Source of the DNA: Deltaproteobacteria bacterium
GTDB taxonomy: Bacteria; Desulfobacterota; Binatia; UBA12015
DNA length: 64,000 nucleotides
Direction of reading: 5' to 3'
NCBI GenBank assembly: GCA_029262355.1
Contig: JAJCZO010000094.1
Location: forward strand, 7,212 to 71,211
This document shows, one piece after another, positions 2,031 through 48,243 of this stretch. Under the pieces are notes generated by a model. That model made no database searches, was not told the DNA's origin, and worked only from the letters and a program-made list of their open reading frames with translations. Numbering within the stretch: position 1 is the stretch's first letter; each line of letters begins with the position of its first letter. The position numbers and the translations under genes were made by a program.

Positions 2031-3509
2031 ATGCAGGTGGTTCTATTCACCGATCGTGCCGGGAAGGCACTCGCGCCGTTCACCGATCGGACCTGCACCG
2101 CATTGCTCCCTGTAGCGGGAAAGGCTCTCGCGATTCACGCCCTCGAATCCATCGCGCGGATCTCCCCGTCGAAGGTCTTCGTCGTCGTCTCCCCCCATGC
2201 GGATGCCGTCGAATCCGACCTCGAGGACGGCCGCCGATGGGGCCTCGATCTCGAGTACCTGCTGACTCGCGGCGACGAAACGCCGGACGCGATCATCGAT
2301 CGTCTTCGCCCAAAGCTCGAAGGTGACTTCCTGGTCGTGCGCGGCGACGTACTGCTCTCTCCGTGCTTGCCCGAGTTTCTCCAGCGAGCCACCAGCCTTC
2401 GCGGCGCGACGATTGCCGCCACCATCGGCGGCGCACCGACCGGCGTTCGCCTCGTGCGCGCCGAAGCGACGGGCCGACTCGATCTTCCGTACGAACCAGA
2501 ATCGCGAGAGACCTGGAAGGAAGACGCGCCCACTGTCGAGCTTCCCAATGCACGCTTCTCCCGCATCGAGTCTCTCGCCGCTTTTCACCGCGCCAACCTC
2601 GACGCCGCCGACGGAAAGTACACCGGCTTGATCATCCCAGGCCGCACCGTGAAGCCCGGAATCGTGGTCGGACGCCAGAGCCGGATTCCTCTCGAAGTAG
2701 TCAAGGCGGGACCCGTCTTCATCGGAAGCCGATGCGACGTGAAGAGCGGCGCCGAGATCCACGGAAGCGTCGTGCTTTCGGACGACGTCGTCGTCGACCG
2801 AAGTGCGACACTCCGATCGGCCGTGATTCTGCCTCACACGTACGTCGGTGAGATGGTCGACGTGTCGGACGCGATCGTCTGGAGCAACGATCTGGTGCAC
2901 CTCGATAGTGGTGCCGTCGCTCACGTCACCGACGAATTCCTCCTCGCCGACCTGGGTGCGGCGGGACTGGAAGAGGGCGCCGCCGAAATCGTGCATCGCG
3001 CGATCGGCGCCATGCTCCTCGCCTTGTCCCTGCCCCTGTGGCCCTTTCTGTTGGCTGCCTCGCTGCTCTCCGACTTGAAGTCGCCCCTGCGGACGATCCA
3101 GCTGATCGGAAACCGTACGACCTTGGGCCCCGACGGCCAGCGAATCCGCACGACGTTCGCGGCGACCGAGGCCGCTACCAGGGTCCCGCTATTGCGACAC
3201 CTTCCGCTCCTCGTGGCAGTCGTGCGTGGAGACATCCGACTCGTCGGCGTCTCGCCACTTACTCCCGAGGAAGCATCGAAACGAACCGAAGACTGGGAGC
3301 GGCTGCGCGACCGCGCGCCGGCCGGCCTCCTGGGTCCAGCCCAGCTGAGTCTTTCCGGCGACGCACCCGAAGAAGAGCGCTGGGTGCTGGAAGCCTACTA
3401 CGCCCAGACCCGTACGCCGGCGAGCGACTTCGTGTGGCTAGCCCGTGGCCTCGGCGCACTCTTCAGTCCACGCGCATGGGGACCCGGCCTCCGGCCGCGC
3501 ACTTCCTAA
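2031..3509 (+). CDS. Tripartite fusion: NDP-sugar pyrophosphorylase-like nucleotidyltransferase + left-handed beta-helix (LbH) + degenerate sugar-phosphate transferase C-terminal domain
   Basis: The N-terminus (LLPVAGKALAIHALESI...VVRGDVLL) has an NTP_transferase fold with a degenerate Gly-rich loop (AGKALAPFT instead of GxGTRLxPLT). Hexapeptide LbH repeats follow (GSRCDVKSGAEIHGSVVLSDDVVVDRSATL). The C-terminus has a TM segment (LLALSLPLWPFLLAASLL) and ...VVRGDIRLVGVSP, comparable to GEMSLVGPRP in the neighbouring transferase. The ATG lies 1 nt after the upstream stop. Confidence 0.65.
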   Translation: MQVVLFTDRAGKALAPFTDRTCTALLPVAGKALAIHALESIARISPSKVFVVVSPHADAVESDLEDGRRWGLDLEYLLTRGDETPDAIIDRLRPKLEGDFLVVRGDVLLSPCLPEFLQRATSLRGATIAATIGGAPTGVRLVRAEATGRLDLPYEPESRETWKEDAPTVELPNARFSRIESLAAFHRANLDAADGKYTGLIIPGRTVKPGIVVGRQSRIPLEVVKAGPVFIGSRCDVKSGAEIHGSVVLSDDVVVDRSATLRSAVILPHTYVGEMVDVSDAIVWSNDLVHLDSGAVAHVTDEFLLADLGAAGLEEGAAEIVHRAIGAMLLALSLPLWPFLLAASLLSDLKSPLRTIQLIGNRTTLGPDGQRIRTTFAATEAATRVPLLRHLPLLVAVVRGDIRLVGVSPLTPEEASKRTEDWERLRDRAPAGLLGPAQLSLSGDAPEEERWVLEAYYAQTRTPASDFVWLARGLGALFSPRAWGPGLRPRTS

Positions 3510-3524
3510 GAGAGAGGGAACACA

Positions 3525-4637
3525 ATGTCCGGCAAGCAAGAGATCACACCCGGCTTCTCCCGTGCAGACCTGCATGTCCACACGACATTCAGCGATGGAA
3601 CGGCCACCCCCGAGGATCTGCTGAACTACTACGCACTGCATTCGGAGGTGAACGCCTTCGCAGTGACGGACCACGACACGATCGACGGCGCGCTACACGC
3701 GAAGAGATTCGCCGAGGAGCACCCCGATCTGTTCGGGCATCTCGACGTCATCATCGGCGAGGAGGTTTCGACCCGTGACGGACACGTCATTGGGCTCTAC
3801 CTCACCAACTGGATCTCGCCGGGGATGAGCGCCGCAGAAACGATCGACATCATTCATGAGCAGGGCGGCCTCGCGATCGCGGCGCATCCGTACACGAGCT
3901 GGATGAAATTCGCGGGCCTCGTTGGCGTGGGAGACCTGATCAAGACGCTGCCGTTCGACGGCGTCGAGACGAAGAACGCCAACTTCACGGAGATGTTCGC
4001 GAACCGCAGAGCCGAACGTAAGGCGGGGACGCTCGCCCGCATCGGAAATTCCGACGGCCACTTCCTCGACGCGATCGGACGCTGCTTCACCGAGTTCCCG
4101 GGACAGGGCGCCGCGGATCTTCGAACGGCGATCGAGCAACGCACGACGACCGCCGGCGGGTCCTGTTACGGGGTGCCGACGCTGGCACGTTTTGCGATGG
4201 ATCGACTCATGAAGGGCGAGTGGGTCATCCCACGCCGCCACCGGGTGAGGCGCGAATCGCAGGCGGGCGAACTCGAGATCCGGATTCACGAGGATTCCTC
4301 GCTCTCCGCTGCGGTGCTGTCCCCCGTCGGTCGCATCGATGCCGCATCGATGCCCGAAATGAAAGAAACGCTGACGATGCTCACCGGAGCGAAGGTCAGC
4401 GTCATCCTCGACCTCTCCGAAGTGCACTTCCTCGGGTCGCCTGGCGTTACCGCGTTGGTTGCGGGGCTGAAGAGTGCGCGCCAATCGGGCGTCGGATTCT
4501 GCCTGGCGAAGCTCTCGACGCCCTGCATCCAGACCTTGTCGGCGGCGCGACTTCTGTCGGTGTTCCCACGGGCGCGCGACGTAGGCGAGGCCCGGAAGCT
4601 GGTCAGCACCGACGCCCTGCAGCTGGCTGAGGCTTAG
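3525..4637 (+). CDS. PHP-domain phosphoesterase (TrpH/YciV-like) fused to a C-terminal STAS (SpoIIAA-like anti-sigma-factor antagonist) domain
   Basis: PHP motifs are present: [22 protein letters not shown]. The C-terminal ~110 aa ([41 protein letters not shown]...) is a typical STAS fold. A strong SD (GAGAGAGGGA) lies 7 nt upstream of the ATG. Confidence 0.75.
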
Positions 4638-16852: not shown

Positions 16853-17057
16853 GTCGCCCAGGATTCCGGGTCTCCGCGCCCGAGTCCACCCCCGTCTTCG
16901 GAGGCCGCAGGCTCGTGCCCGCACGCCATAGGGAGTCGCGTGGCGCAGATCCGCGGGTTCCGTCCGCGCCAGGAATCGCTCTACGGTCGGAAGGGCTCTC
17001 GTACGAAGATACCAGTGGGTTCCGTCGGTGCGGGCAATCGTTCTAGAGTCCAGGTCG

Positions 17058-19922
17058 ATGCTCCTTCTCCGCCTCTCCTGCGCCGCCGCGATCCTTTGGT
17101 GCGCGGGGGCGGCATTCGCGGCCGACGCGGGTGTCGAGGGCAAGAAGCTCGTGATCGTCGACGGGGGGCTCAGCGGGAACGACAAGATCGCCTTCGTCGC
17201 CAAGGGCGCGGACCTCACCAAGGGAGCCGGGACCGATCCCGCGACGATCTCGGCGACGATAGAGCTCTCGCGCGGAGAGATCGGCGGCGCGGTCTCGATT
17301 CCCGCCGGCCCCCTGGGGCCGGGCGTTCCTGGGTGGCGTCAGAATGACGGCTCGCCAGCGCGCTACCAGAACTCGAGTGCGGCGAGCGGCGTGCCGACGG
17401 GAGCTCGGAGCCTGGTCGTGAAGCCCGGCAAGCTTCTGAAGCTCACGACCCGCACTCTCGGGGATGTGCCGATCGATTTTGCGGCGTTCGGCGCATCGAC
17501 CTCGACCCTCCGGACCGTGGCCACGATCGAGAACGACGGCGAGATCTTCAGACATTGCACCGCGTTTCCCGCCGCCGGCATCAAGCGGACCGGGCCCAAC
17601 GGGTCCGGCCGCTCCAAGCTCGTGGCGAGGAACGGCATACCCACGGAGTGCCCCGGCCTCGTCCTCTTTCCGAACCCGCCTCTGCCTTTCGTTGCTCTGT
17701 CGGCGCGGCTCTACTTCGACGCAGCGAGCCCTTCGGCGCTCGCAGCCGCGATCGCCCGCGTATCCCATCCCGAAACCGCCGGCTACTTCTCTAGTTTTCG
17801 GGCGACGGTCGACGGGGCTCTGGGGTCGCTTCCCGCGGCGTCCGACGACACACGCGCGAAGGTCGCGAAGGCCGCCGGCCTGCTTCACGTTCTCGGGCAA
17901 ACCCCACCGGGAGGCAGCGGATTCTCGAGCTACCGCGACGTAGCGGTGACCGCGCTGCTCGGCATCGTCGATCGCACCGCGCTCGACTCCGTGGCCGAGT
18001 TCGTCACGCCGCCTGCGAACTTACTGCACGTGCTCCAGGATTCAGGGCGCCTTCAATCGATGACGGAGGCGTATGACTTCCTGCGTGGCACCGGGATCGC
18101 TCCGGGCGACGACGCGATCATCCGCGCGTTGATTGCCACATGGGCCGATGCGTACGTCCAGGACTGGAACCTGATCGGGGATCCGTTCGGGTTGTTCGCG
18201 GGACACCGTGACAACTGGGCGATCAAGGCCGGCAGCGCGCTCGTCACCACCGCTCTCGCGCTGCCCGGCCACGCTTCCGCCCCCACGTGGCTCGCGGCGG
18301 GCCTGACCTACCTGAACGAATCGCTCCGAAACGTCGTGATGGCGCCGGGTTGGTACGCGGAGAGCCCGCACTACGTGAACTACTCCCTCAACAACCTCGC
18401 CTCCACTGCCTGGCACGTGCGCAACGCGACCGGGGAAGACTGGTTCGATGATCTCGCGCCGTTGGTGGACGTTGCGCTGGCCCTGCGTCAGCCCGACGGC
18501 CAGTCGGCCGCCTTCGAAGAGGGCGTTCCCAACGTCTTCCCGCACGACGTTCTGGCGGCAGCGTACCCGACACGGGCAGCCCAGATGCTCTGGGCGTGGA
18601 ACCAGAGCAGCCAGAATCCCGTGAATTACGACAACCAACAGATTCATTCCGTAACGCGATTCCTGGTCGCGGATCTCGTCACCTTGCCATCGGCGCCCAC
18701 CGGCGCCGCGACGACCTTTCTCGACGGCGACACCCACGTCGCAGCACTGCGTTCGGGCTGGGGCCCGGGAGCCACGCAGCTCACGTCTTTCACCGCGCTC
18801 GACCACGCCAGCACGGAGAGCGTCTCGTCCCGCCACAACATGGAGAATCCACTCGACGTGACGCTGTTCGCCGCGGGGGCGATGCTGCTCCCCACCGCGA
18901 GCGGCGGTCCCCAGGTGACCAGCTCAGCGAATCGCGCCGTCTATCTCGAACCCGGCTCGAAGAACATTCCGCTGGTGGATGGCGATGCGCCCTACCTCGT
19001 CGACCCACTGGCGGCCCAATTCGGCGAGCGACTGGACGGAGAAGTCGTCGACACCGCGAGCACACTCGTTGCCACCTTTGCAGCCGGGGTATCCGTCGAG
19101 CGCACGGTCGCACTGGTCGGCGACGAGTACGGCGTCGTCGTGGACCAGTTCCACGCAGACGCGCCGCGCGAGTACGGCGCGACCTGGCGTGGCCGCGGCG
19201 ATGCGAGCGTGCGAAGCCTCTCCCCCACCCAGCTTGGTGTCGACTACGACTGGCCAACCTCCTCGACCCCCACCGCTCACCTTGCGGTGGACGTCGCTGC
19301 GAGCAGCCCCCTCACCGGGATCGTGGATGCCAGCCTCTATGCCCCCGCATGGGGTGTGGAGGAAACGATCGCGCCACTGCGCGTTTCCGCCACCGGTTCG
19401 GTGCTTCATTTCCTGACCGTGCTGCGACCCCGTGCCAACGGAGCTCCGCCGTCGGCGATCACGTCCGTGGGAGGTGGCACGACCGCGGCCTTCCGCGTGA
19501 CCCTCGCCACGACCGAGCACTTGATCGCCACCGGCGGCGGCGCTCCCCTTGTGGCCGACGGAGTCACGAGCGATGGGACTCTCGCAATCGTCCGGCGCGA
19601 ATCGGGTGTCACGACGAGTCTCACCATGGTGCGCGGGACCTCCATCGACGCGGGCCCCAGCGCCGGCGTCCTCGAATCGGATGAACCCGCCACGGTCTCC
19701 GTGGCCATTGCCGCAGGCAGCGCGCGCGTCGACGTGAGTCCTGACGTTGCCGACTCCTTACGCGTCACACTGCGCGATCTCCCCTCGCTGAGCGGCACCG
19801 CCGCGCACGCGGCAACGTTCGACGGCGAACCACTCACCGGCGGATCGTTCTCACAATCCGGCACCGAGTTTCACATCCGCGTGCCCCACGGTGGCACCGT
19901 CGCGATCACACCAGTGCCCTGA
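17058..19922 (+). CDS. Large secreted protein, tentatively heparinase II/III-like or alginate-lyase-like polysaccharide lyase fold (alpha/alpha toroid + beta-sandwich)
   Basis: The signal peptide is MLLLRLSCAAAILWCAGAAFAADA, with the start refined to 17058. The protein is about 955 aa and Ala/Gly-rich. The family assignment is tentative and rests on architecture and weak motifs (WYAESPHYVNYSLNNLA). Confidence 0.4.
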   Translation: MLLLRLSCAAAILWCAGAAFAADAGVEGKKLVIVDGGLSGNDKIAFVAKGADLTKGAGTDPATISATIELSRGEIGGAVSIPAGPLGPGVPGWRQNDGSPARYQNSSAASGVPTGARSLVVKPGKLLKLTTRTLGDVPIDFAAFGASTSTLRTVATIENDGEIFRHCTAFPAAGIKRTGPNGSGRSKLVARNGIPTECPGLVLFPNPPLPFVALSARLYFDAASPSALAAAIARVSHPETAGYFSSFRATVDGALGSLPAASDDTRAKVAKAAGLLHVLGQTPPGGSGFSSYRDVAVTALLGIVDRTALDSVAEFVTPPANLLHVLQDSGRLQSMTEAYDFLRGTGIAPGDDAIIRALIATWADAYVQDWNLIGDPFGLFAGHRDNWAIKAGSALVTTALALPGHASAPTWLAAGLTYLNESLRNVVMAPGWYAESPHYVNYSLNNLASTAWHVRNATGEDWFDDLAPLVDVALALRQPDGQSAAFEEGVPNVFPHDVLAAAYPTRAAQMLWAWNQSSQNPVNYDNQQIHSVTRFLVADLVTLPSAPTGAATTFLDGDTHVAALRSGWGPGATQLTSFTALDHASTESVSSRHNMENPLDVTLFAAGAMLLPTASGGPQVTSSANRAVYLEPGSKNIPLVDGDAPYLVDPLAAQFGERLDGEVVDTASTLVATFAAGVSVERTVALVGDEYGVVVDQFHADAPREYGATWRGRGDASVRSLSPTQLGVDYDWPTSSTPTAHLAVDVAASSPLTGIVDASLYAPAWGVEETIAPLRVSATGSVLHFLTVLRPRANGAPPSAITSVGGGTTAAFRVTLATTEHLIATGGGAPLVADGVTSDGTLAIVRRESGVTTSLTMVRGTSIDAGPSAGVLESDEPATVSVAIAAGSARVDVSPDVADSLRVTLRDLPSLSGTAAHAATFDGEPLTGGSFSQSGTEFHIRVPHGGTVAITPVP

Positions 19923-20794
19923 TGTTCAACGCCTCGGACCTCGCCCTGCGACGAGCCGCCGCGCTGCTTCCGAGCCGAGCCGGCTACGCGCTGACGCGGC
20001 GGCTCACCCCGCGGCTGGGGGGCGATCAGCGGCGCTGGCTGGGGGGCGTCGTGCGCGAGAAGGCTCTGGCGCTGCTCGGTGACGAAGAATTGGCTACCGC
20101 CACGGGGGAGCGGTTCACTACCGAGGTCGCGTGCGACGACCTCGACGCCGTGACGTCGGTGGCTTGGCGCGAATCGCGGCGACTCGCCGCAACCTCCGTC
20201 GTCGGACCCGAGCACCTGCCCCAGGTGGGCCCGGCCATCGTGACCAGCTTCCACTTCTCAGGCGGTTTCCGGGTGTTCGACGTGCTTCGGACCCGGGGAC
20301 TGCGACCGACCTTCCTACACGCACCGCCGCGCGAGGTGCCTCGGGGCTATGGCGCGACGATGCACGAACTACGGATGCATCATCTCCGCCAGTACCTCAC
20401 GCCACCGCTCATCGAGCCGGGCCCGGGCGCAAGAGAGGCCCTCGATCGCCATCTCGGTGAAGGTGGGGTCATCGTCGGCCTGCTCGACGTCGCACCGGCG
20501 ATGCTCGATCTGCGGGATCACGCCGGGTGCACCCTCCTCGGCCGACGACTTCGGCTTCCCGTTGGGCTGCTTCGGCTCGCCATCAAGCACGCGGCACCGG
20601 TGATCCCCTACGACGGACGGATCGACCGCAACGAGCGGGTGCTCGAATTCCACCCTCCGGCCCACGGCGACGATCCCGAGGCGCTGCTCGCCGACGTCCT
20701 CCTGACCTGCGAACACGTCATCCGTGAGCGACCCTGGACGTGGCAGGCCTGGCTGGATGCGGACGGCTTCTTTGCGACGGCGGCGGCCGGTTGA
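19922..20794 (+). CDS. LpxL/HtrB-family (lipid A / lysophospholipid acyltransferase superfamily) protein with an atypical catalytic motif
   Basis: PAIVTSFHFSGGF aligns with the xIVTGHFGNWEL motif; the His is retained but the acidic residue is replaced. The ATG overlaps the upstream stop by 1 nt (TGATG). Confidence 0.4.
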   Translation: MFNASDLALRRAAALLPSRAGYALTRRLTPRLGGDQRRWLGGVVREKALALLGDEELATATGERFTTEVACDDLDAVTSVAWRESRRLAATSVVGPEHLPQVGPAIVTSFHFSGGFRVFDVLRTRGLRPTFLHAPPREVPRGYGATMHELRMHHLRQYLTPPLIEPGPGAREALDRHLGEGGVIVGLLDVAPAMLDLRDHAGCTLLGRRLRLPVGLLRLAIKHAAPVIPYDGRIDRNERVLEFHPPAHGDDPEALLADVLLTCEHVIRERPWTWQAWLDADGFFATAAAG

Positions 20795-30222: not shown

Positions 30223-30927
30223 ATGGATCTGTCCATAGAAGTTCCGCTGCATACGGGAAGCAGCTTCGCGGATCTCGGCAGCTACGTCGCCTCGATTCTC
30301 GCGGTAGCGGTCCTCGTACTCGTGCTGTCGGGATGGCTGCTCGAACGAACCCGCCGAGTGTCGGCTACCGCCAGTATCATGCTCTTCCTCGGGCTCACCA
30401 TTCTGCCGATCTTCATGATGCTGTTCGGTGCCTTCGCCAGCGTGGAGCAGGCCAAGTCCGTCGAGTTCTGCCACTCCTGCCACACCGCGATGAATCCCTA
30501 CGTGGCCGACATGCTCGACCGGGACAGCACCACTCTCGCAGCCGTTCACTCCTCCGAGCGCTACATCCCGCGCGACCCCTGCTACAAGTGCCACGCGAAC
30601 TACGGAGTCTGGGGCGAGGCCGAGGCGAAATTCCGCGGGTTCGCCCACCTCTATCATTGGCTGCTGGCGTCGCCGACCGCACTCGGGATCGAGCAGATCG
30701 AGACGTACGAGCCGTACGCCAATGGCCCCTGTCTCGAGTGCCACTCGGGTGCGAAGAGCTTCCTCGAGTCCGGCCAGGGCGTTCACCGAATGATCGCCGA
30801 CAACCTCCTCGAACTGGACGACGACACCGGCGCGCCCGTCACCTCGTGTCTGGTCTGCCACGGCCCCGCGCACCCGAAGCTGGCAGACATCGAGGTCGAG
30901 ATCGTGCCGGAGAGGGCGGAAGGGTGA
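30223..30927 (+). CDS. NapC/NirT/NrfH-family membrane-anchored tetraheme cytochrome c (quinol dehydrogenase-like)
   Basis: There are two N-terminal hydrophobic segments, followed by four CXXCH motifs (CHSCH, CYKCH, CLECH, CLVCH) spaced as in NapC/NirT. Confidence 0.75.
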   Translation: MDLSIEVPLHTGSSFADLGSYVASILAVAVLVLVLSGWLLERTRRVSATASIMLFLGLTILPIFMMLFGAFASVEQAKSVEFCHSCHTAMNPYVADMLDRDSTTLAAVHSSERYIPRDPCYKCHANYGVWGEAEAKFRGFAHLYHWLLASPTALGIEQIETYEPYANGPCLECHSGAKSFLESGQGVHRMIADNLLELDDDTGAPVTSCLVCHGPAHPKLADIEVEIVPERAEG

Positions 30928-31859
30928 ACAAGCCCGATCTCATCCGCTTGCCCGGCCCGCGCCTGCGCGGACGAGTGCTGCTCCTCTCGAAGCTCCTGAT
31001 CTTGCTGGCCGCAGTGCTCACCCTCGTCTCGGTGAACCTGTGCACCGCGCTTACGCTCTCCCTCTTCTTGATCGTCGGCCAGGCGGCCGTCATCGCTGGC
31101 GCAGGACTCGCCCTGTTCGTCGCGGCCACCGACTTTCTGCGAACGCGCGGCACGTCGGAGGTCCACTTTAACGCTGGGGAGACCGTGTTTCGTCAGGGCG
31201 ACGTCGGCGATCTCGTGTACGTGATCGTTAGCGGCGAAGTCGAAGCGATCCGGGAGGATCCGGACGGCGAGGACAAGGTACTGGCGACGATGGGCGAGGG
31301 TGAGTACTTCGGAGAGATGGCTCTCTTGAGCGACGCCCCTCGCACCGCCACCGTCCGCGCCCGCACCGACCTCGATGCGATCGCGATGGCGCGAGCGGAC
31401 TTCACGACGCTCTACGCCTACCTACCCAACCTACGAGTAAACGTGGAGAGTGTGATGACAGAACGAAAAGCCCAGAACCGCGAACGCTTGGGCTCGAAGA
31501 GCTCGTTTGGGATGCTCCTGGCCGGCGCAACGGCCGCCGCCCTCATGGCATCGGCCGCCCACGCAGCCGGCGACGCGGCGGCCGGCGAGTCCCTGTACAA
31601 AAAGCACGGCTGTGCGCAGTGCCATGGGATGGAGGGCAAAGGCGACGGTTACCTGCTGCCGATGCTCAAGGAGACGCCCACGATGCGCGACTGGTCCGAC
31701 CCCGAAGCGCTGGACGGGCTCACCGACGAGTTCATGATCGAGATCACGGAGAAGGGTGGCGAAGGCGTCGGCAAGTCGGAGATCATGCTCAAGTACGGCA
31801 AGAAGCTGTCGCGGGATGAGATCGTCGACATCGTTGCGTACATTCGCTCCCTGCAATGA
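30924..31859 (+). CDS. Membrane protein: 2 TM helices + cytoplasmic cyclic-nucleotide-binding (CAP/cNMP) domain + third TM helix + periplasmic class I cytochrome c domain
   Basis: The GTG start overlaps the NapC stop (GTGA). The TM helices are LLLSKLLILLAAVLTLVSV and LSLFLIVGQAAVIAGAGLALFVAA. The cNMP-binding region is FNAGETVFRQGDVGDLVYVIVSGEVEA...GEGEYFGEMALLSDAPRTATVRA. The third hydrophobic segment is FGMLLAGATAAALMASAA. The cytochrome c domain has ...KKHGCAQCHG...SRDEIVDIVAYIRSLQ. Confidence 0.6.
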   Translation: MNKPDLIRLPGPRLRGRVLLLSKLLILLAAVLTLVSVNLCTALTLSLFLIVGQAAVIAGAGLALFVAATDFLRTRGTSEVHFNAGETVFRQGDVGDLVYVIVSGEVEAIREDPDGEDKVLATMGEGEYFGEMALLSDAPRTATVRARTDLDAIAMARADFTTLYAYLPNLRVNVESVMTERKAQNRERLGSKSSFGMLLAGATAAALMASAAHAAGDAAAGESLYKKHGCAQCHGMEGKGDGYLLPMLKETPTMRDWSDPEALDGLTDEFMIEITEKGGEGVGKSEIMLKYGKKLSRDEIVDIVAYIRSLQ

Positions 31860-33244
31860 AGCGCCAACGATTCCCGACCCTCCTCGCATTCTTCGTCATC
31901 ACCGTGGCACTCCCGACCGGAGGCGGAACCGCCGCGGATCGCGATGCCCCGGTCGCCGCTGCGGCGAAGGTCGGGGCCCCCCCCGAGACGGCACCCGAGC
32001 CGCTCGTCGCAGCCTCGGGCCCTCGTAAGGCGAAGGTCCTGCTCCTCGGCCTCGACGGCCTCGACCCCGCGCTGGTGCGCAGATGGACCGCGGACGGTGC
32101 GATGCCGAACCTCGCAAAATTGATCGATCGCGGCACGATGGCCGAGATCGACTGCGTCGTGGGCACGTCCTCGCCAGTCGTATGGACCACGGTGGCGACC
32201 GGTGTGCCGCCCACCGTGCACGGCATCACCGGATTCCGGATTGGGGAAGACCCGGTGAACTCGAGCCACCGCAAGCAACCCACATTCTGGAACATCCTGC
32301 CCGCAAGGGGCGTCGATCTCGCCACCATGGGATGGATGGTGACCTGGCCGGCCGAGGCCGACGTCGGGACGATGGTCTCCGACCGCGCCTGGTGGGGTCG
32401 GTTTCACGAGGACGTCACGCCCAAAGGTATCGTCGAACCCCTGCACCACGTGCCGCACATGAAGCGCAAAGAGATCCTCGAGATGTTCACGACGTACGAC
32501 TTCGACGGCGAGTGGAAGTCATGGTCGGTGGAAGACCCGCGCTATTCCGTGCACTACCTGCTCCAGAAACGTCTTCTGAACATCTTCCGACGAGACACGG
32601 TCTACGCGGGCGCCACCCAAGAGATCGCACGCGAGCGCGATCTCGACGTGCTCGCCGTCTACCTCCAGGGCACCGATTACGTTGGTCACGGATTCTGGCA
32701 GTGGTTCGATCCAGAGCCGTTTCAGGAAAGCGGCTGGGACATTCCGAAGGAACAGATCAAAGCGCTCGAGAATGTCGTTCCCGCCTACTACCGCTACGTC
32801 GACTCGCTCGTGGGTGAGATTCTTCCCCTGGTCGACGAGAACGCCCTGGTGATCCTCCTCTCCGACCACGGCTTCGAAGCGGCGCCGAAGTGGCGAAACA
32901 GCAAGGATCACTCGACCGAGGCACGCTTCCTATCGGGCAATCACCGCAAGAAGGCGACGCTGATCCTGTCGGGCCCACAAGTCGAACGCAACGCAGAGGC
33001 GGACGGGCGGATCACCCACTTCGACATCCTGCCAACGCTGCTCTACGCACTCGACCTTCCGCAGGCCCGCGACCACCGCGGCCGCCCGCTCACCGAGCTG
33101 TTCACCAAAGACTACGCCGGCGATCGCAAGAGCGAGACGATCGAAACGTACGTGACGGCCGCGGACCGCGAAAAGCCCACGGTCCGAAGCAGGCTCGACC
33201 CGGAGATCGTCGAAGAGCTGCGGTCTCTGGGCTACGTGCAGTAG
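31856..33244 (+). CDS. Secreted type I phosphodiesterase / nucleotide pyrophosphatase (NPP, alkaline-phosphatase superfamily) family protein
   Basis: There is a signal peptide, then LLLGLDGLDPALV...PNLAKL...TSSPVVWTTVATGVPPTVHGITGF...LLSDHGFE. The ATG overlaps the upstream stop (ATGA). Confidence 0.7.
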   Translation: MKRQRFPTLLAFFVITVALPTGGGTAADRDAPVAAAAKVGAPPETAPEPLVAASGPRKAKVLLLGLDGLDPALVRRWTADGAMPNLAKLIDRGTMAEIDCVVGTSSPVVWTTVATGVPPTVHGITGFRIGEDPVNSSHRKQPTFWNILPARGVDLATMGWMVTWPAEADVGTMVSDRAWWGRFHEDVTPKGIVEPLHHVPHMKRKEILEMFTTYDFDGEWKSWSVEDPRYSVHYLLQKRLLNIFRRDTVYAGATQEIARERDLDVLAVYLQGTDYVGHGFWQWFDPEPFQESGWDIPKEQIKALENVVPAYYRYVDSLVGEILPLVDENALVILLSDHGFEAAPKWRNSKDHSTEARFLSGNHRKKATLILSGPQVERNAEADGRITHFDILPTLLYALDLPQARDHRGRPLTELFTKDYAGDRKSETIETYVTAADREKPTVRSRLDPEIVEELRSLGYVQ

Positions 33245-33257
33245 ATCCCCGCTCGAC

Positions 33258-34097
33258 TCAGCCGGTCGCCGTCTCCTGGAAGAGATGCACGTCCGTCTGC
33301 GGGAACGGAATCGAGCAGCCCGCGGCTTCGAGCTCCTCCTTCAGGGAGCGGAGCAGGTCGAAGCGAAGCATCCAGTAGTCCTCGGCCTTGCACCACGGCC
33401 GCACGACGATGTTCACCGACGAATCCCCGAGCTCGCTCACCGCGATCACCGGCTGTGGATCCTTCAACACGCGCGCGTCGCTCTCCACGACCTTCTTGAT
33501 GGTCGTCAGCGCGAGGCCGATGTCGTCGGTGTAGGCGATCCCCATGACGATGTCGTTTCGACGCGTTGGGTTCGCCGAGTAGTTCTTGATGATCGTGCCG
33601 AAGATCGACGAGTTGGGCACCGTGATCTGGACGTTGTCGGGCGTGGCGAGGACCGTCGAGAACATCCCGATCTCCTTTACCGAACCCGCCGTCCCCGCAA
33701 CCTCGACGTAATGACCGGGCCGGAACGGTCGGAAGATCAACAGCATCATGCCCGCCGCGAAGTTCGACAGCGTTCCCTGCCACGCCAAGCTGATGCCGAC
33801 ACTCGCGCCACCCAAGACGGCGATGAGTGACGTCGTCTCGATGCCGAAGAGCCCCAGCACCGCGACCACGGTGACCAAGATGATCAGGTAGTAGACCACG
33901 CCCGACAGGAAGGGCCGCAGTGCCTCGTCGATCTGAGCACGCTCGAGGGCGCGCTCGGTCGTCTTGCGCATCCGACCAGCAATCCAGCGTCCGATGATCA
34001 GGACCGCGATCGCGCCGACCACCTGAATCCCCCAGTTCGTGACGAGCGTCACGAGCGTGTTCATTCCGTCGTCGAGATACTTGGAGTATTCGTCCAT
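33258..34097 (-). CDS. Small-conductance mechanosensitive channel (MscS family)
   Basis: The N-terminal TM helices are followed by the conserved ...GTLSNFAAGMMLLIFRPFRPGHYVEVAGTAGSVKEIGMFSTVLATPDNVQITVPNS core. The start was refined to the internal ATG (MDEYSKY). Confidence 0.85.
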   Translation of the reverse strand: MDEYSKYLDDGMNTLVTLVTNWGIQVVGAIAVLIIGRWIAGRMRKTTERALERAQIDEALRPFLSGVVYYLIILVTVVAVLGLFGIETTSLIAVLGGASVGISLAWQGTLSNFAAGMMLLIFRPFRPGHYVEVAGTAGSVKEIGMFSTVLATPDNVQITVPNSSIFGTIIKNYSANPTRRNDIVMGIAYTDDIGLALTTIKKVVESDARVLKDPQPVIAVSELGDSSVNIVVRPWCKAEDYWMLRFDLLRSLKEELEAAGCSIPFPQTDVHLFQETATG

Positions 34098-34226
34098 TGC
34101 TTCCCCTTCGCGGCCCCGTGAGTCTGCCGGAGCGGTTACGTTGCAGATTTCGTGCACTGGATCGAGGGCTCGGGGCTCACCGACGCTCGATTGAATGCGC
34201 CCGGGCCCGCCGGTAACCTCGGCCAA

Positions 34227-35045
34227 ATGGCCACCTTCATCACCGACGAGTGCATCAACTGCGGCGCCTGCGAACCGGAGTGCCCGAATACCGCCATCTA
34301 CCAGGGAGGTGTCGAATTCGACGCGCTCGATGGGAGCAAGCTGGCCGCGATTTCGGACGATTTTTTCTACATTGTCCCCGATAAATGCACGGAATGCGTG
34401 GGCTTCTTCGACGCGGAGGCCTGCGCCGCGGTCTGCCCGGTCGACTGCTGCATCCCCGACCCGAACATCCCCGAGACCGAGGCGGTCCTCTTCGAGCGGG
34501 CGAAGCAGATCCACCCGGAGGAGGCGTTCCCCGAGGACTTCCCGTCGCGCTTCAAGGCAGGCGCAGGCGGCGACAGCGGTGACGAGGCCGCGGCCGCCCC
34601 GGCGGCTGCGGCTACACCCACGGCCGGAGCCGCTCCCGCGGGCGGCGGCGCCACCCTGACGATGAGCCCCGAAGACGCGCTCGCTGGGTCGATCCCCGCA
34701 CTCGCCGACTGGGAGGTGCCTCTGTCGTGCTTCCGGTGTAGCGGCCAGTTCGAAGTACCGTTCCAGTTCATCCGGCCGGGCACCGTGCTCCACTGCCCGC
34801 ACTGCGGAGGCTCGTTCGTTCCCAACACGACCATGTACCAGAACGTCGCCGGACGAGTGACGCGGTTCTACGACGCGTGGACCTCGGAGCTCACTCAGAT
34901 CCGCAAGCGGCGCCAAACCGAGCTCGACAAGTTCGAAGAGAAGCTCCACGCCGGGCTCGACGACCTCAAGAACGACCTGCGTAGCCACGGAGGCGGCGCC
35001 GACCTCGCGGGCGCCCCCCAGCGCGACCGCGGCTTCTTCGGCTGA
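34227..35045 (+). CDS. 2x[4Fe-4S] ferredoxin domain fused to a C-terminal Ala-rich linker and a zinc-ribbon-like domain
   Basis: MATFITDECINCGACEPECP and CTECVGFFDAEACAAVCPVDCC give two ferredoxin clusters. The C-terminus has CFRCSGQF...CPHCGG. Confidence 0.7.
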   Translation: MATFITDECINCGACEPECPNTAIYQGGVEFDALDGSKLAAISDDFFYIVPDKCTECVGFFDAEACAAVCPVDCCIPDPNIPETEAVLFERAKQIHPEEAFPEDFPSRFKAGAGGDSGDEAAAAPAAAATPTAGAAPAGGGATLTMSPEDALAGSIPALADWEVPLSCFRCSGQFEVPFQFIRPGTVLHCPHCGGSFVPNTTMYQNVAGRVTRFYDAWTSELTQIRKRRQTELDKFEEKLHAGLDDLKNDLRSHGGGADLAGAPQRDRGFFG

Positions 35046-44893: not shown

Positions 44894-46885
44894 ATGAGTG
44901 AGATCGGGCGCCTGGCCATCGTGCTGGGCTTCATCGTGGCCATTTGGGGTAGCGCCGCGAGCATCCTCGGCGGGCTGCGGCGCGACAAGGCTTTGGTCGC
45001 GAGCGGCACTCACGCCGCGTACGCCTTCTCTGCTCTCACCGGCATCGCCGTCCTCGCTCTCCTCCAACTCCTCCTCACACGCGACTTCAACGTCGAGTAC
45101 GTGGCCTCCTACAGCTCGAGCACGCTGCCACTGTGGTACACGATAGCTGCCCTCTGGGGCGGGATGAAGGGGTCGCTGCTGTGGTGGACCTTCATTTTGG
45201 CGGTCTGCAACGCAGTCGTTCAGGTCCAGAACCGACACAAGAACCGCGACCAGATGCCGTACGTCACGGCGACCATGCTGATCACCGGGGGGTTCTTCCT
45301 CTCGCTGCTGGTCTTCGTGACGGACCCCTTCGAGCGGCTGCCGTTCACGCCGTCGGAAGGCTCCGACCTGAACCCCCTGCTGCAGAACTACTGGATGACG
45401 ATTCACCCGCCCTCGCTGTACATCGGGTTCGTCTCCACAACGGTTCCCTTCGCCTTCGCGCTCGCCGCACTGGCCACTGGCAAGCTCAGCGACGCCTGGA
45501 TTCGGACGACACGGCGCTGGGCGCTGTTTTCCTGGTTCTTCCTGAGCCTCGGGAACCTCTTTGGTGCCGCCTGGGCGTACGTCGTCCTGGGTTGGGGCGG
45601 ATATTGGGCCTGGGACCCCGTCGAGAACGCGGCCTTCATGCCTTGGCTCACCTCGAGCGCCTACCTGCACTCGGTGATGATTCAGGAAAAGAAGGACATG
45701 CTGAAGGTCTGGAACATGGTGCTGGTGATCCTCACCTTCGCGCTGACCATCTTCGGTACCTTCCTCACCCGCTCGGGAGTCATCTCGTCGGTCCACTCGT
45801 TTACACAGTCGGGTCTTGGCCCGTTCTTCTTGATCTTCCTCGGCATCATCTTGGCGGTGTCCCTCGGTCTGCTCGTGTGGCGGCTGCCGATGTTGAAGAG
45901 CAAGAACGAGCTCGAGTCGGTCTTCTCCCGCGAAGCGACGTTCCTGCTGAACAACCTGATGTTCGTCGGCATCGCCTTCACCGTCTTCTGGGGCACCGTC
46001 TTCCCCGTACTCTCCGAGTGGGTCCGAGGCGTGAAGATCACCGTCGGACCGCCGTTCTTCAATCAGGTAAATGCACCACTCGGCCTCGCGCTCATCTTCC
46101 TCATGGGCGTCGGTCCCGTCATCGCCTGGCGGCGGGCGAGTTGGTCGAGCCTCAAGCGAGCGTTTGCGATTCCAGTCTTCGCTGGGGTCGCCACCGGCGT
46201 GATCGCGCTCGTGATGGGCGCGGGCAACTTCTACGCGATCGTCGCGTTCTCGATCTCGTCCTTCGCACTCGCAACCATGTTCACCGAGTTCTGGAAGGGC
46301 ATGCGCGTTCGCCAGGCCATGATGGGCGAGGCGCCGTGGACCGCGCTCTCACGTCTGATCGGCAAGAACCGGCGGCGCTACGGCGGCTATATCGTGCACG
46401 TCGCGATGGTGATGGTCTTCGTCGGAATCGTCGCGTCGTCGGTCTTCAAGATCGAGAAGCAGACCGGCATCGAGATCGGGCAGTCCGTCGAGATCGGCGG
46501 CTACGACGTGCGCTTCGACGGCATCGAAGACGAGAGCACCGAGCACGTCGAGATTCGCAAAGCGAAGCTCGCAGTCTTCGATGACGGCGAGCTGCTCGGC
46601 TTCGTCTACCCCGAGAAGCGCTTCTACAAGAAGCCCGAGCAACCAACGACCGAGGTCGCCATCTGGTCGACGATCGGGAGCGATCTGTACACCGTGCTCG
46701 GCACGTACGATGAGGCGTCCAAGATAGGAGTCTTCCAACTCTTCCTGAACCCGATGATCTCGTGGATGTGGATCGGCGGCTTCGTGCTCTTCCTCGGAAC
46801 CGTCGTCTGCATGTGGCCCACGTACGCAGAACGTACCGCCGAGGCGACCTCGCGGATTCCCGCGGGCTCGAAGACGACATCTTGA
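44894..46885 (+). CDS. ccmF: Cytochrome c-type biogenesis protein CcmF (heme lyase subunit)
   Basis: The 663-aa polytopic protein contains WGGYWAWDPVENAAFMPWL (WWD domain) and conserved His residues. Confidence 0.9.
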   Translation: MSEIGRLAIVLGFIVAIWGSAASILGGLRRDKALVASGTHAAYAFSALTGIAVLALLQLLLTRDFNVEYVASYSSSTLPLWYTIAALWGGMKGSLLWWTFILAVCNAVVQVQNRHKNRDQMPYVTATMLITGGFFLSLLVFVTDPFERLPFTPSEGSDLNPLLQNYWMTIHPPSLYIGFVSTTVPFAFALAALATGKLSDAWIRTTRRWALFSWFFLSLGNLFGAAWAYVVLGWGGYWAWDPVENAAFMPWLTSSAYLHSVMIQEKKDMLKVWNMVLVILTFALTIFGTFLTRSGVISSVHSFTQSGLGPFFLIFLGIILAVSLGLLVWRLPMLKSKNELESVFSREATFLLNNLMFVGIAFTVFWGTVFPVLSEWVRGVKITVGPPFFNQVNAPLGLALIFLMGVGPVIAWRRASWSSLKRAFAIPVFAGVATGVIALVMGAGNFYAIVAFSISSFALATMFTEFWKGMRVRQAMMGEAPWTALSRLIGKNRRRYGGYIVHVAMVMVFVGIVASSVFKIEKQTGIEIGQSVEIGGYDVRFDGIEDESTEHVEIRKAKLAVFDDGELLGFVYPEKRFYKKPEQPTTEVAIWSTIGSDLYTVLGTYDEASKIGVFQLFLNPMISWMWIGGFVLFLGTVVCMWPTYAERTAEATSRIPAGSKTTS

Positions 46886-47385: not shown

Positions 47386-47844
47386 ATGGCCGTCACTCTC
47401 ATAGGGCTCGTGATCGTCACGGCGGCAGCGATCTTCATCGCGTGGCCTCTACTCTCCGGCGGCGGTGACTCGGATGCTCCCGTAGTCCCGGAGATGAGCG
47501 CACTCGAGAAGGACAAGAATGCCGCGCTCGAGGCGATCCGCGAGCTCGACTTTGACCAGCGCCTCGGAAAGATCTCCGACGAAGACCATGCCGGGCTGCG
47601 CGCCGATCTCGAAAAACGCGCGATGAAGGCGCTGAGTGCCGCCGACGCAGGCAGTGCGGGAGAGCCCGGGCTGCAATCCGTCACCAGCCACGGAGCAAGT
47701 CCGAGCACCAGCAATGCTGAGGCAGGCGGCTTCTGTTCGTCGTGCGGAAACCAATTCAAACGCGATGCACGGTTCTGCGTCACCTGTGGCAAGAAGCTTC
47801 TGAAGTCCGGGAGCGGCCGCGGACGTCGCCGCACTGGCTCCTGA
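47386..47844 (+). CDS. Small membrane protein with a C-terminal zinc-ribbon (unknown function; last gene of the ccm cluster)
   Basis: The N-terminal TM helix is LIGLVIVTAAAIFIAWPLL. The C-terminus has FCSSCGNQF...CVTCG. The ATG immediately follows the ccmH stop (TAGATG). Confidence 0.5.
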   Translation: MAVTLIGLVIVTAAAIFIAWPLLSGGGDSDAPVVPEMSALEKDKNAALEAIRELDFDQRLGKISDEDHAGLRADLEKRAMKALSAADAGSAGEPGLQSVTSHGASPSTSNAEAGGFCSSCGNQFKRDARFCVTCGKKLLKSGSGRGRRRTGS

Positions 47845-47856
47845 CCCGAGGCACCC

Positions 47857-48243
47857 ATGAGCGACTCCGACGAGCAGACCAAGACCCAACCCGAGGCGGA
47901 AGCCAAGCCCGAGAGCGAAAAGATCACGATCGACGACTTCGGGAAGGTGGATCTCCGGATCGGCACGATTCGAACCGCAGAGCCCCATCCAAATGCGGAT
48001 CGGCTACTCGTGCTGAAGGTCGACATAGGAGAACAAGAGCTCCGCCAACTCGTGGCCGGGATTCGGGACACATACGACGTGCGGACTCTCGTGGGCCAAC
48101 AGATCGTGGTGGTCGCCAACCTGAAGCCCGCGAAACTGCGCGGGGTGGAGAGCCACGGAATGTTGCTCGCCGGGCGGGACGAGACGGGGCTCTCGGTGCT
48201 GGCGCCCGGGAAGAGGTTGTTGCCCGGGACCCGGGTGAGCTGA
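47857..48243 (+). CDS. tRNA-binding protein (CsaA/Trbp111, EMAP-like OB fold)
   Basis: KVDLRIGTIRTAEPHPNADRLLVLKVDIG...VVVANLKPAKLRGVESHGMLLA is the typical Myf domain. Confidence 0.75.
   Translation: MSDSDEQTKTQPEAEAKPESEKITIDDFGKVDLRIGTIRTAEPHPNADRLLVLKVDIGEQELRQLVAGIRDTYDVRTLVGQQIVVVANLKPAKLRGVESHGMLLAGRDETGLSVLAPGKRLLPGTRVS

Follow-up and report, generated by a model that had tools for sequence, protein, structure and literature searches.

Described systems closest to the locus

Cyclic nucleotides are known in bacteria mainly as transcriptional signals that act via CRP-type regulators, and we know of essentially no documented case in which cyclic nucleoside monophosphates (cNMPs) control enzymes of respiratory electron transfer directly, by allostery. 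Here we analyse a gene cassette on contig JAJCZO010000094.1 of assembly GCA_029262355.1, from a bacterium of the Binatia lineage; the 64,000-nucleotide stretch that was analysed (contig positions 7,212 to 71,211) is called the window. The cassette encodes a NapC-like tetraheme cytochrome and, directly downstream, a protein in which a transmembrane (TM) helical hairpin carries a cyclic-nucleotide-binding (CNB) domain, here named TM-CNB, which in the window is fused to a cytochrome c. We propose, with a probability of about 0.5, that this is the form taken in the Binatia lineage by a conserved membrane module in which cNMPs gate electron transfer from quinol to cytochrome c. An obligate CNB partner of a cytochrome of the quinol-oxidising type is a concrete, testable candidate for direct cNMP control, and the case is strengthened by the CNB-fused type II NADH dehydrogenase (NDH-2) and the nucleotide cyclase found in the clusters of remote relatives.

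The tetraheme protein resembles the NapC/NirT/NrfH/CymA/TorC family in having a TM helix directly before heme 1 and four collinear CXXCH motifs. It differs from that family in its two TM helices, apparently an N-out hairpin, in place of one, and in having no cognate reductase adjacent; its obligate neighbour is TM-CNB instead. We know of no member of the NapC/NirT family for which such a neighbour has been described. TM-CNB shares with the MloK1/SthK channels, the MscS-CNB “bCNG” proteins and the CNB-ABC ATPases a canonical CNB domain placed on TM helices, and MscS-CNB and ABC-CNB proteins are found among its homologues and neighbours. Unlike the CNB channels, it lacks a pore or P-loop, its TM2 replaces the helical bundle, and it would probably regulate a separately encoded redox protein rather than a channel in the same chain. 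Since it has two TM helices only, no pore domain and no ion-channel match in Pfam, a cyclic-nucleotide-gated channel was ruled out.

For the fusion of TM-CNB to a cytochrome, the closest parallel is FbcH of Bradyrhizobium japonicum, which Thony-Meyer and colleagues are said to have described in 1991 as a cytochrome b/c1 polyprotein encoded by one open reading frame (ORF). Its internal cytochrome signal peptide is reportedly cleaved by signal peptidase to give two mature proteins. In FbcH as in the window protein, a single ORF covers a membrane protein and a c-type cytochrome, and the cytochrome's signal peptide links the two. The window fusion differs in that its upstream part is a CNB sensor, not a cytochrome b, and its cleavage is predicted from the layout of the segment.

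A further comparison is with the ptdABCDEFG multiheme cluster of marine Alphaproteobacteria, whose function is not known, and in which a tetraheme cytochrome lies next to a CNB/4Fe-4S protein, together with an FAD/NAD(P) oxidoreductase, a pentaheme cytochrome, a porin-like protein, a decaheme cytochrome and a ferric-reductase-like protein (bioRxiv 10.1101/2023.11.21.568154). Compared by published description, the two parts lists are alike. Among the homologous loci that we collected, which carry L-numbers (L001, L002 and so on), the pentaheme cytochrome and secreted protein of L022, L046 and L058 are reminiscent of PtdA and PtdB, and the NDH-2-CNB protein of L023 is likewise comparable; the decaheme cytochrome and the ferric-reductase-like protein set the ptd cluster apart from the cassette.

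In our literature searches we met no account of the cassette, and none of NDH-2-CNB fusions or of a NapC-type cytochrome that has a CNB protein as its partner. Each domain family is well known, as are CNB-regulated membrane proteins (channels, MscS-CNB, ABC-CNB); the cassette itself is undescribed. The object of interest is the invariant pair of NapC-like protein and TM-CNB, not the fusion or the phosphodiesterase-family gene that follows it.

An invariant gene pair with a variable third component

Scanning species-representative genomes gave 7 homologous loci and scanning metagenomes gave 42; targeted look-ups added further ones. All were annotated with custom hidden Markov models (HMMs), and near-identical loci were collapsed, leaving 43 distinct loci. 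A locus was judgeable for pairing if at least 250 nt followed the NapC-like gene (38 loci), and for the identity of the third gene if at least 450 nt followed the TM-CNB gene (27 loci).

In all 38 judgeable loci the TM-CNB gene lies directly downstream of the NapC-like gene on the same strand, with a gap of -19 to +24 nt. The pairing was recovered starting from either partner and held down to 39–48% identity; thus, the core of the cassette is NapC-like plus TM-CNB. An earlier reading of the window made from its letters, the first-pass annotation, had linked a CNB protein to a NapC-type cytochrome but had placed the fusion at the centre. The link proved general; the fusion, by contrast, does not define the system, and split genes are commoner.

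What follows the pair is usually a monoheme cytochrome c, found in 23 of the 27 judgeable loci, as a separate gene in 15 and fused to TM-CNB in 8. Three further loci have a pentaheme cytochrome (~640 aa) and a secreted protein (~460 aa) at this place, and one has neither kind of cytochrome. The invariant core is therefore the pair of a NapC-like protein with two TM helices and TM-CNB, and periplasmic c-type cytochromes are its usual third component. Among fused loci, L001 comes from a Binatia metagenome-assembled genome (MAG) and encodes a fusion protein with 83% identity to that of the window; its synteny with the window is complete and includes the phosphodiesterase-family gene. A fused relative at 66% identity retains the NapC-like and fusion genes together with the divergent cytochrome c gene and lacks the phosphodiesterase-family gene. 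A larger group of relatives has a TM+CNB protein of ~200 aa, and its NapC-like, TM-CNB and separate 127-aa cytochrome c genes overlap. Binatia-type MAGs and more distant metagenomic lineages account for most occurrences of the pair. We hold the anatomical and evolutionary conclusions drawn here and below to be well supported and very probably correct.

Two observations on the remote loci may be recorded. The most divergent cassette, L064 (5935-7660; 39% identity), keeps the gene order, and changes of reading frame interrupt all three of its parts (NapC-like, TM-CNB and cytochrome c), which points either to a copy in decay or to a poor assembly. The secreted ~460-aa protein encoded after the pentaheme gene (L022/L044, L046, L058) has no assigned family.

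The NapC-like tetraheme cytochrome

The first-pass annotation had described the upstream gene as NapC/NirT-type, and the profile searches agree. The protein has two hydrophobic helices and four CXXCH motifs (C83, C120, C170, C209), and residues 49-149 match positions 5-97 of Pfam Cytochrom_NNT (PF03264) above the gathering threshold (30.9 bits against a cut-off of 24.1). When an alignment of 43 family sequences was compared with E. coli NapC by hhalign, the match had a probability of 97.1% and an E-value of 7.6e-11 over 145 columns, and all four heme motifs and the C-terminal CxxCHxxxAH were collinear. The protein is, judged from these profiles, a true but divergent member of the NapC/NirT superfamily.

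TM2 ends about 12 residues before heme 1, and an additional TM helix precedes it at the N-terminus. In remote relatives a signal peptide stands ahead of the two helices. This arrangement fits a two-helix anchor in the form of an N-out hairpin, which would put the hemes on the periplasmic side. TM2 is conserved as strongly as the heme domain, and L58, P62 and G69 are invariant. No NapAB, NirS, NrfA or TorA genes were seen in the neighbourhoods examined.

As a separate observation, the NapC-like protein of L007 (2228-2992), L013 and L034 has, between hemes 2 and 3, three tandem copies of a 10-residue unit, QIRTYRRYRK, encoded by a 30-nt repeat; the otherwise near-identical copy in L005 has one. 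The copy number may reflect a population-level repeat expansion within the cytochrome gene.

The TM hairpin and the cyclic-nucleotide-binding domain

The CNB domain is matched by Pfam cNMP_binding (PF00027) over residues 80-164 with 91.8 bits (cut-off 27.5; E 2.7e-26). Its phosphate-binding cassette, FGEMALLSDAPRTATVRA in the window, aligns with those of PKG and PKA, whose CNB domains are also the top sequence matches among solved structures. Across 77 clusters the pattern FGEMAL..(P/A)RTATVR is nearly invariant, with FGE and R-[TSAN]-A almost always kept. The Arg-Thr-Ala in this cassette is not diagnostic for cyclic AMP (cAMP) versus cyclic GMP (cGMP).

An AlphaFold model of the fusion protein (mean predicted local distance difference test score, pLDDT, 77) places strands within residues 77-156 and helices at 157-166 and 168-191, that is, the eight-stranded β-barrel with αB and αC that defines the CNB fold, and a Foldseek comparison of the CNB model with cAMP-bound CRP and GlxR gave a probability of 1.00. 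The domain is thus apparently ligand-competent, as far as fold and cassette can tell. No helix-turn-helix family was matched, and a CRP-type transcription factor was accordingly ruled out.

The two N-terminal helices (residues 12-39 and 42-74) are modelled at pLDDT ~95, and β1 starts at residue 77. The N-terminal helical bundle (N3A motif) is missing; TM2 stands in its place and leads straight into β1. TM2 has one conserved face, formed by L45, F48, L49, Q53, V56, G59, L62 and V66, and conservation of one face would be the expected product of a specific helix–helix interface.

Origin and proposed maturation of the sensor–cytochrome fusion

Split TM-CNB proteins end after αC; the fused ones run on into a cytochrome c. 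In the window, the whole of 30924-31859 is one uninterrupted ORF with no internal stop in 311 aa, and both domains that the first-pass annotation had named were found in it: beside cNMP_binding, Pfam Cytochrom_C (PF00034) matches residues 218-310 (46.2 bits, cut-off 21.3, E 1.2e-11). This domain has a single heme motif, CAQCH, at residue 230 (nt 31611-31625), and a conserved MLKYG (nt 31785-31799) may supply the Met axial ligand. Scored with a custom HMM against the cytochrome c genes of split loci, it reaches 224 bits. About 17 independent protein clusters with 61-100% identity (NCBI, JGI, ENA and Logan assemblies) share the architecture of the fusion protein, and this rules out a frameshift or assembly artefact as the source of the fusion. 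The nearest named relatives of the fusion protein are from Candidatus Binatia MAGs, and the source databases label it merely “cyclic nucleotide-binding domain-containing protein”.

In a neighbour-joining tree of the TM+CNB region, all fused proteins form one clade nested among the split forms, which points to a single fusion event and to the split state as ancestral. As the tree and the locus counts indicate, the fused forms are a local variant, and three separate genes are the ancestral and commoner state.

How, then, was the cytochrome attached? The first-pass annotation had proposed three TM helices, with the third bridging the CNB and heme domains. The two N-terminal helices stand, and so does the logic of its topology, with the heme domain outside and the CNB domain inside. 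The third helix does not: this Ala-rich stretch is only weakly hydrophobic, and its homologue in the stand-alone cytochrome c is the Sec signal peptide. In split loci that cytochrome opens with a classic Sec signal peptide, for instance MRSPRSFGHAALAALLAATPAHA with the cut before GD, and the fusion junction, ending in RERLGSKSSFGMLLAGATAAALMASAAHA with the predicted cut before AGD, occupies the equivalent position directly ahead of the cytochrome domain. The window junction has an n-region RERLGSK, a short h-region and a c-region AHA, with a predicted signal peptidase I site between A214 and A215. The layout of basic n-region, short h-region and small-x-small motif ahead of the conserved GD is retained in each of the 17 fused clusters, while the h-region varies freely in sequence. 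The uncharged stretch averages 18.6 residues (12-24) in fused proteins versus 21.8 (16-24) in split signal peptides, and in five fused clusters it measures 12-16 residues only, too short for a stable membrane span. In the window protein the junction stays under a Kyte-Doolittle value of 1.6 over 19 residues, and the AlphaFold model shows a 15-residue helix there at pLDDT ~60.

Since the junction has kept the signal-peptide layout and has not lengthened, the segment has, in our reading, stayed a signal peptide. The CNB gene and the next cytochrome c gene merged once in the window's clade, turning the signal peptide into an internal, cleavable-looking export signal. We consider it somewhat better than an even chance that the fusion is a polyprotein cut at the predicted site into TM-CNB and a soluble cytochrome c. 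The covalent link between CNB domain and heme may then not survive maturation, and the mature products would probably be the same two proteins as in genomes with split genes, by analogy with FbcH. The cassette thus offers a clean natural case of gene fusion by signal-peptide capture, with split and fused states both extant.

The principal alternative extends the model of the first-pass annotation and holds that a stable, uncleaved three-TM protein couples the cNMP sensor to the periplasmic heme, in either direction, while the phosphodiesterase-family enzyme hydrolyses extracytoplasmic nucleotides. The single ORF and the self-consistent topology speak for it; moreover, retention of the fusion across the ~17 clusters implies that it is tolerated or selected, and a tether would keep the cytochrome c beside the hemes of the NapC-like protein. 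Against this, split genes are both ancestral and more frequent (15 loci versus 8), and the junction looks like a signal peptide throughout, down to the five clusters with a very short uncharged stretch. We judge this alternative unlikely, and its enzymatic half fares no better, as described next.

The phosphodiesterase-family gene

The last gene of the window operon encodes a protein matched by Pfam Phosphodiest (PF01663; 111.8 bits, cut-off 23, E 7e-32), with a signal-peptide-like N-terminus and the metal-ligand and nucleophile motifs of the alkaline phosphatase superfamily (GLDGLD, GTSSP, DYVGH, SDHG, GNH). It had been presented as a secreted enzyme of the ectonucleotide pyrophosphatase/phosphodiesterase (NPP) family that possibly hydrolyses nucleotides. 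Family and export are borne out by the Pfam match and the signal-peptide-like segment, while the nucleotide-hydrolysing activity is not, since no curated NPP or PhnA cut-off is reached. Its only similarities beyond the family are weak and are to phosphonoacetate hydrolase: PhnA (TIGR02335) scores 47.5 bits against a cut-off of 407.55, over residues 59-126 only, and matches in the PDB have E ~1e-4 over 70 residues. The protein thus resembles NPP enzymes and PhnA in its motifs and signal peptide; it differs from PhnA in falling far under the equivalog cut-off, and it is not a conserved part of the cassette.

The gene is present in four of the seven judgeable fused loci (the window, L001, L008 and L020), between the fusion gene and an MscS gene, and is absent from L002, from L018 (79% identity, otherwise syntenic), from L019 and from every split locus. 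Its overlap with the fusion stop codon in four loci favours a functional tie of the kind that the uncleaved model supposes. This patchy distribution argues against the tie, and so does geometry: the enzyme is predicted to be periplasmic, across the membrane from the cytoplasmic CNB domain, and the curated families assign it no substrate. Its variable presence rules it out as a core partner. The gene is accessory and, in our reading, entered the operon later as a lineage-specific insertion. There is a caution in this, in that the operon of one genome misleads on function; the phosphodiesterase link vanishes once relatives are compared.

A proposed cNMP-gated branch from quinol to cytochrome c

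We propose that the hairpins of the NapC-like protein and TM-CNB pack into one membrane complex. The NapC-like protein would oxidise membrane quinol, as NapC, NrfH and CymA do, and pass electrons to soluble cytochromes c; in the window the candidate acceptors are one monoheme cytochrome c encoded divergently and one encoded downstream. Binding of cAMP or cGMP to the cytoplasmic CNB domain would move TM2 of TM-CNB against the conserved TM2 of the cytochrome and its quinol-site region, and this shift would switch the quinol:cytochrome c branch on or off. Such gating is plausible, and we put its chances slightly short of even. As a small, defined operon from Binatota, an uncultured phylum, the cassette is suited to heterologous expression.

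Three kinds of remote locus favour this proposal by their respiratory or cNMP-related context. The first has an NDH-2 (Pyr_redox_2 + NDH2_C) with a C-terminal CNB domain encoded directly upstream on the same strand, as in L023 (gene at 2331-3986), L040, L059 and L060, and likewise upstream of the NapC-like gene in L052; these NDH-2-CNB proteins are the next-best matches to the CNB domain of the window. Read from the gene order, such loci would give a compact chain from NADH to quinone to the NapC-like protein to cytochrome c, with two CNB domains. The second is L017, where a CHASE2 plus class III adenylate/guanylate cyclase gene (2125-3954) lies directly upstream of the pair, with an MscS-CNB gene farther upstream and a Pyr_redox_2 gene downstream at the end of the contig. 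The third comprises the three loci in which the pentaheme cytochrome lies downstream of the pair. MscS-CNB fusions flank both L017 and L022.

It is tempting to place the NapC-like/TM-CNB pair and NDH-2-CNB together as a class of second-messenger-gated respiratory enzymes, a generalisation that we regard as tentative and, on balance, unlikely. If it were true, cAMP or cGMP would act directly, at the post-translational level, both where electrons enter the quinone pool (NDH-2) and where they leave it (the NapC-type quinol:cytochrome c reductase), and a whole electron-transport branch could be opened or closed without a change in transcription.

Several points weigh against a cNMP-gated module. 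First, we infer the interaction between the NapC-like protein and TM-CNB from synteny and conserved TM faces, and the conserved face of TM2 could stem from homodimerisation of the CNB protein instead of contact with the cytochrome. Second, the NapC-like protein lies below every curated cut-off for NapC, NirT, NrfH and TorC in NCBIfam (NrfH 27 against 134.2; NapC/NirT TIGR02161 20.6 against 310.6; TorC 21.2 against 455; NapC PRK10617 17.7 against 349), and searches of the PDB with the single sequence and with the family profile found no solved-structure relative at E <= 1; quinol oxidation is therefore extrapolated from the superfamily. Third, no terminal reductase or oxidase lies adjacent to the window cassette to indicate a direction or an end point of electron flow. 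Fourth, a tblastn search of the 64-kb window with a single query, the class III cyclase of L017, found no nucleotide cyclase, and the same query against the window and all loci returned only its self-match. Finally, the sequence around the small-x-small motif of the fusion junction is rich in Ala, and the motif could be kept even in a protein that is not cleaved.

Signalling might also run in the opposite sense, with the redox state of the tetraheme protein or the quinone altering the affinity of the CNB domain for cNMPs, so that TM-CNB serves as a redox-dependent cNMP buffer or sensor. TM-CNB has no other output domain, its pairing with a redox protein is tightly conserved, and a cyclase is adjacent in L017, all of which such a scheme would accommodate. 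However, characterised CNB domains are ligand-driven inputs, and we know of no precedent for one as an output; the NDH-2-CNB fusions are more simply read as cNMP-regulated enzymes, and the stoichiometry of a low-abundance membrane protein would make buffering implausible. We therefore think it improbable. Hardly more credible is that TM-CNB is a structural or assembly subunit, or binds another ligand as FNR, CooA and NtcA-type domains do, with no gating at all: the CRP/FNR superfamily does have members that do not bind cNMPs, and the one tblastn query found no cyclase in the window, but the ribose- and phosphate-contacting residues (Gly-Glu...Arg-Thr-Ala) are nearly invariant in the 77 clusters, the best sequence matches, PKG and PKA, are genuine cNMP binders, and cassettes in remote loci have a cyclase and further CNB fusions as neighbours.

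Gene arrangement of the window cassette and its surroundings

All four ORFs of the cassette were found where the first-pass annotation had placed them (Table 1), and the tight coupling that it had reported could be read directly from the sequence. The GTG start of the fusion gene overlaps the stop codon of the NapC-like gene by 4 nt (GTGA), and the ATG of the PF01663 gene overlaps the stop codon of the fusion gene by 4 nt (ATGA). A scan of the locus for promoters and terminators gave nothing above chance.

Table 1. Positions of the cassette genes and of their domains and motifs, in nucleotides of the window.
Feature	Position	Strand	Basis
Divergent monoheme c-type cytochrome, 138 aa	29723..30139	-	ORF, motifs read from sequence
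NapC/NirT-superfamily tetraheme cytochrome, 234 aa	30223..30927	+	ORF, PF03264
NapC-like TM1	30286-30342	+	
NapC-like TM2	30376-30438	+	
NapC-like heme motifs	30469-30483, 30580-30594, 30730-30744, 30847-30861	+	
Fusion gene, 311 aa (TM hairpin + CNB + former signal peptide + cytochrome c)	30924..31859	+	
TM helical hairpin of the CNB protein, residues 12-74	30957..31145	+	AlphaFold helices
Cytoplasmic CNB domain, residues 77-191	31152..31496	+	Pfam, Foldseek
Phosphate-binding cassette FGEMALLSDAPRTATVRA	31308-31361	+	CNB domain
Junction segment (“TM3”), residues 186-214	31479..31565	+	Matches signal peptide of stand-alone cytochrome c
Periplasmic class I cytochrome c domain, residues 215-311	31566..31856	+	Pfam Cytochrom_C
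PF01663 (NPP-type) enzyme, accessory gene, 462 aa, predicted exported	31856..33244	+	Pfam Phosphodiest

The divergent monoheme cytochrome c noted earlier on the other side of the operon is indeed present. It has CGTCH at residue 41, an MPVW motif at residue 100 and a signal-peptide-like N-terminus, and its only Pfam match is Cytochrome_CBB3 at 21.0 bits, under the 27-bit cut-off. Most loci of more than 58% identity have a homologue beside the NapC-like gene; in six remote loci it occurs as a tandem same-strand pair. In L005 (4734-5308, minus strand), L006, L007, L013, L029 and L034 the gene is frameshifted at the same place. Several independent assemblies of one population share the break, which marks either a true pseudogene or an assembly error that recurs.

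Farther out, the window encodes glycosyltransferases, a short-chain dehydrogenase/reductase, an MscS channel, a ferredoxin-like protein, a PMT_2 glycosyltransferase and a CDP-alcohol phosphatidyltransferase. About 13 kb downstream of the cassette is a gene for CcmF (44894-46885, plus strand), and the genome thus has System I cytochrome c maturation, a point in favour of the proposed module; two small ORFs follow it (47386-48243). Upstream, two apparently coupled ORFs of 964 and 290 aa (17028-19922 and 19922-20794, plus strand) have a coding-like G+C content at third codon positions and no Pfam match at E <= 1e-4.

The MscS gene of the window (33258-34103, minus strand) converges on the operon 13 nt past the stop codon of the PF01663 gene. 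MscS genes without a CNB domain also lie beside the cassette in L001, L008, L019 and L020, a recurrent association. Next to it, 34152-35045 (plus strand) encodes a 297-aa protein in which an N-terminal 2x[4Fe-4S] ferredoxin domain is followed by a long extension, C-terminal to it, with CxxC pairs, and this gene adjoins the PMT_2 glycosyltransferase gene in L002, L018 and L020 as well.

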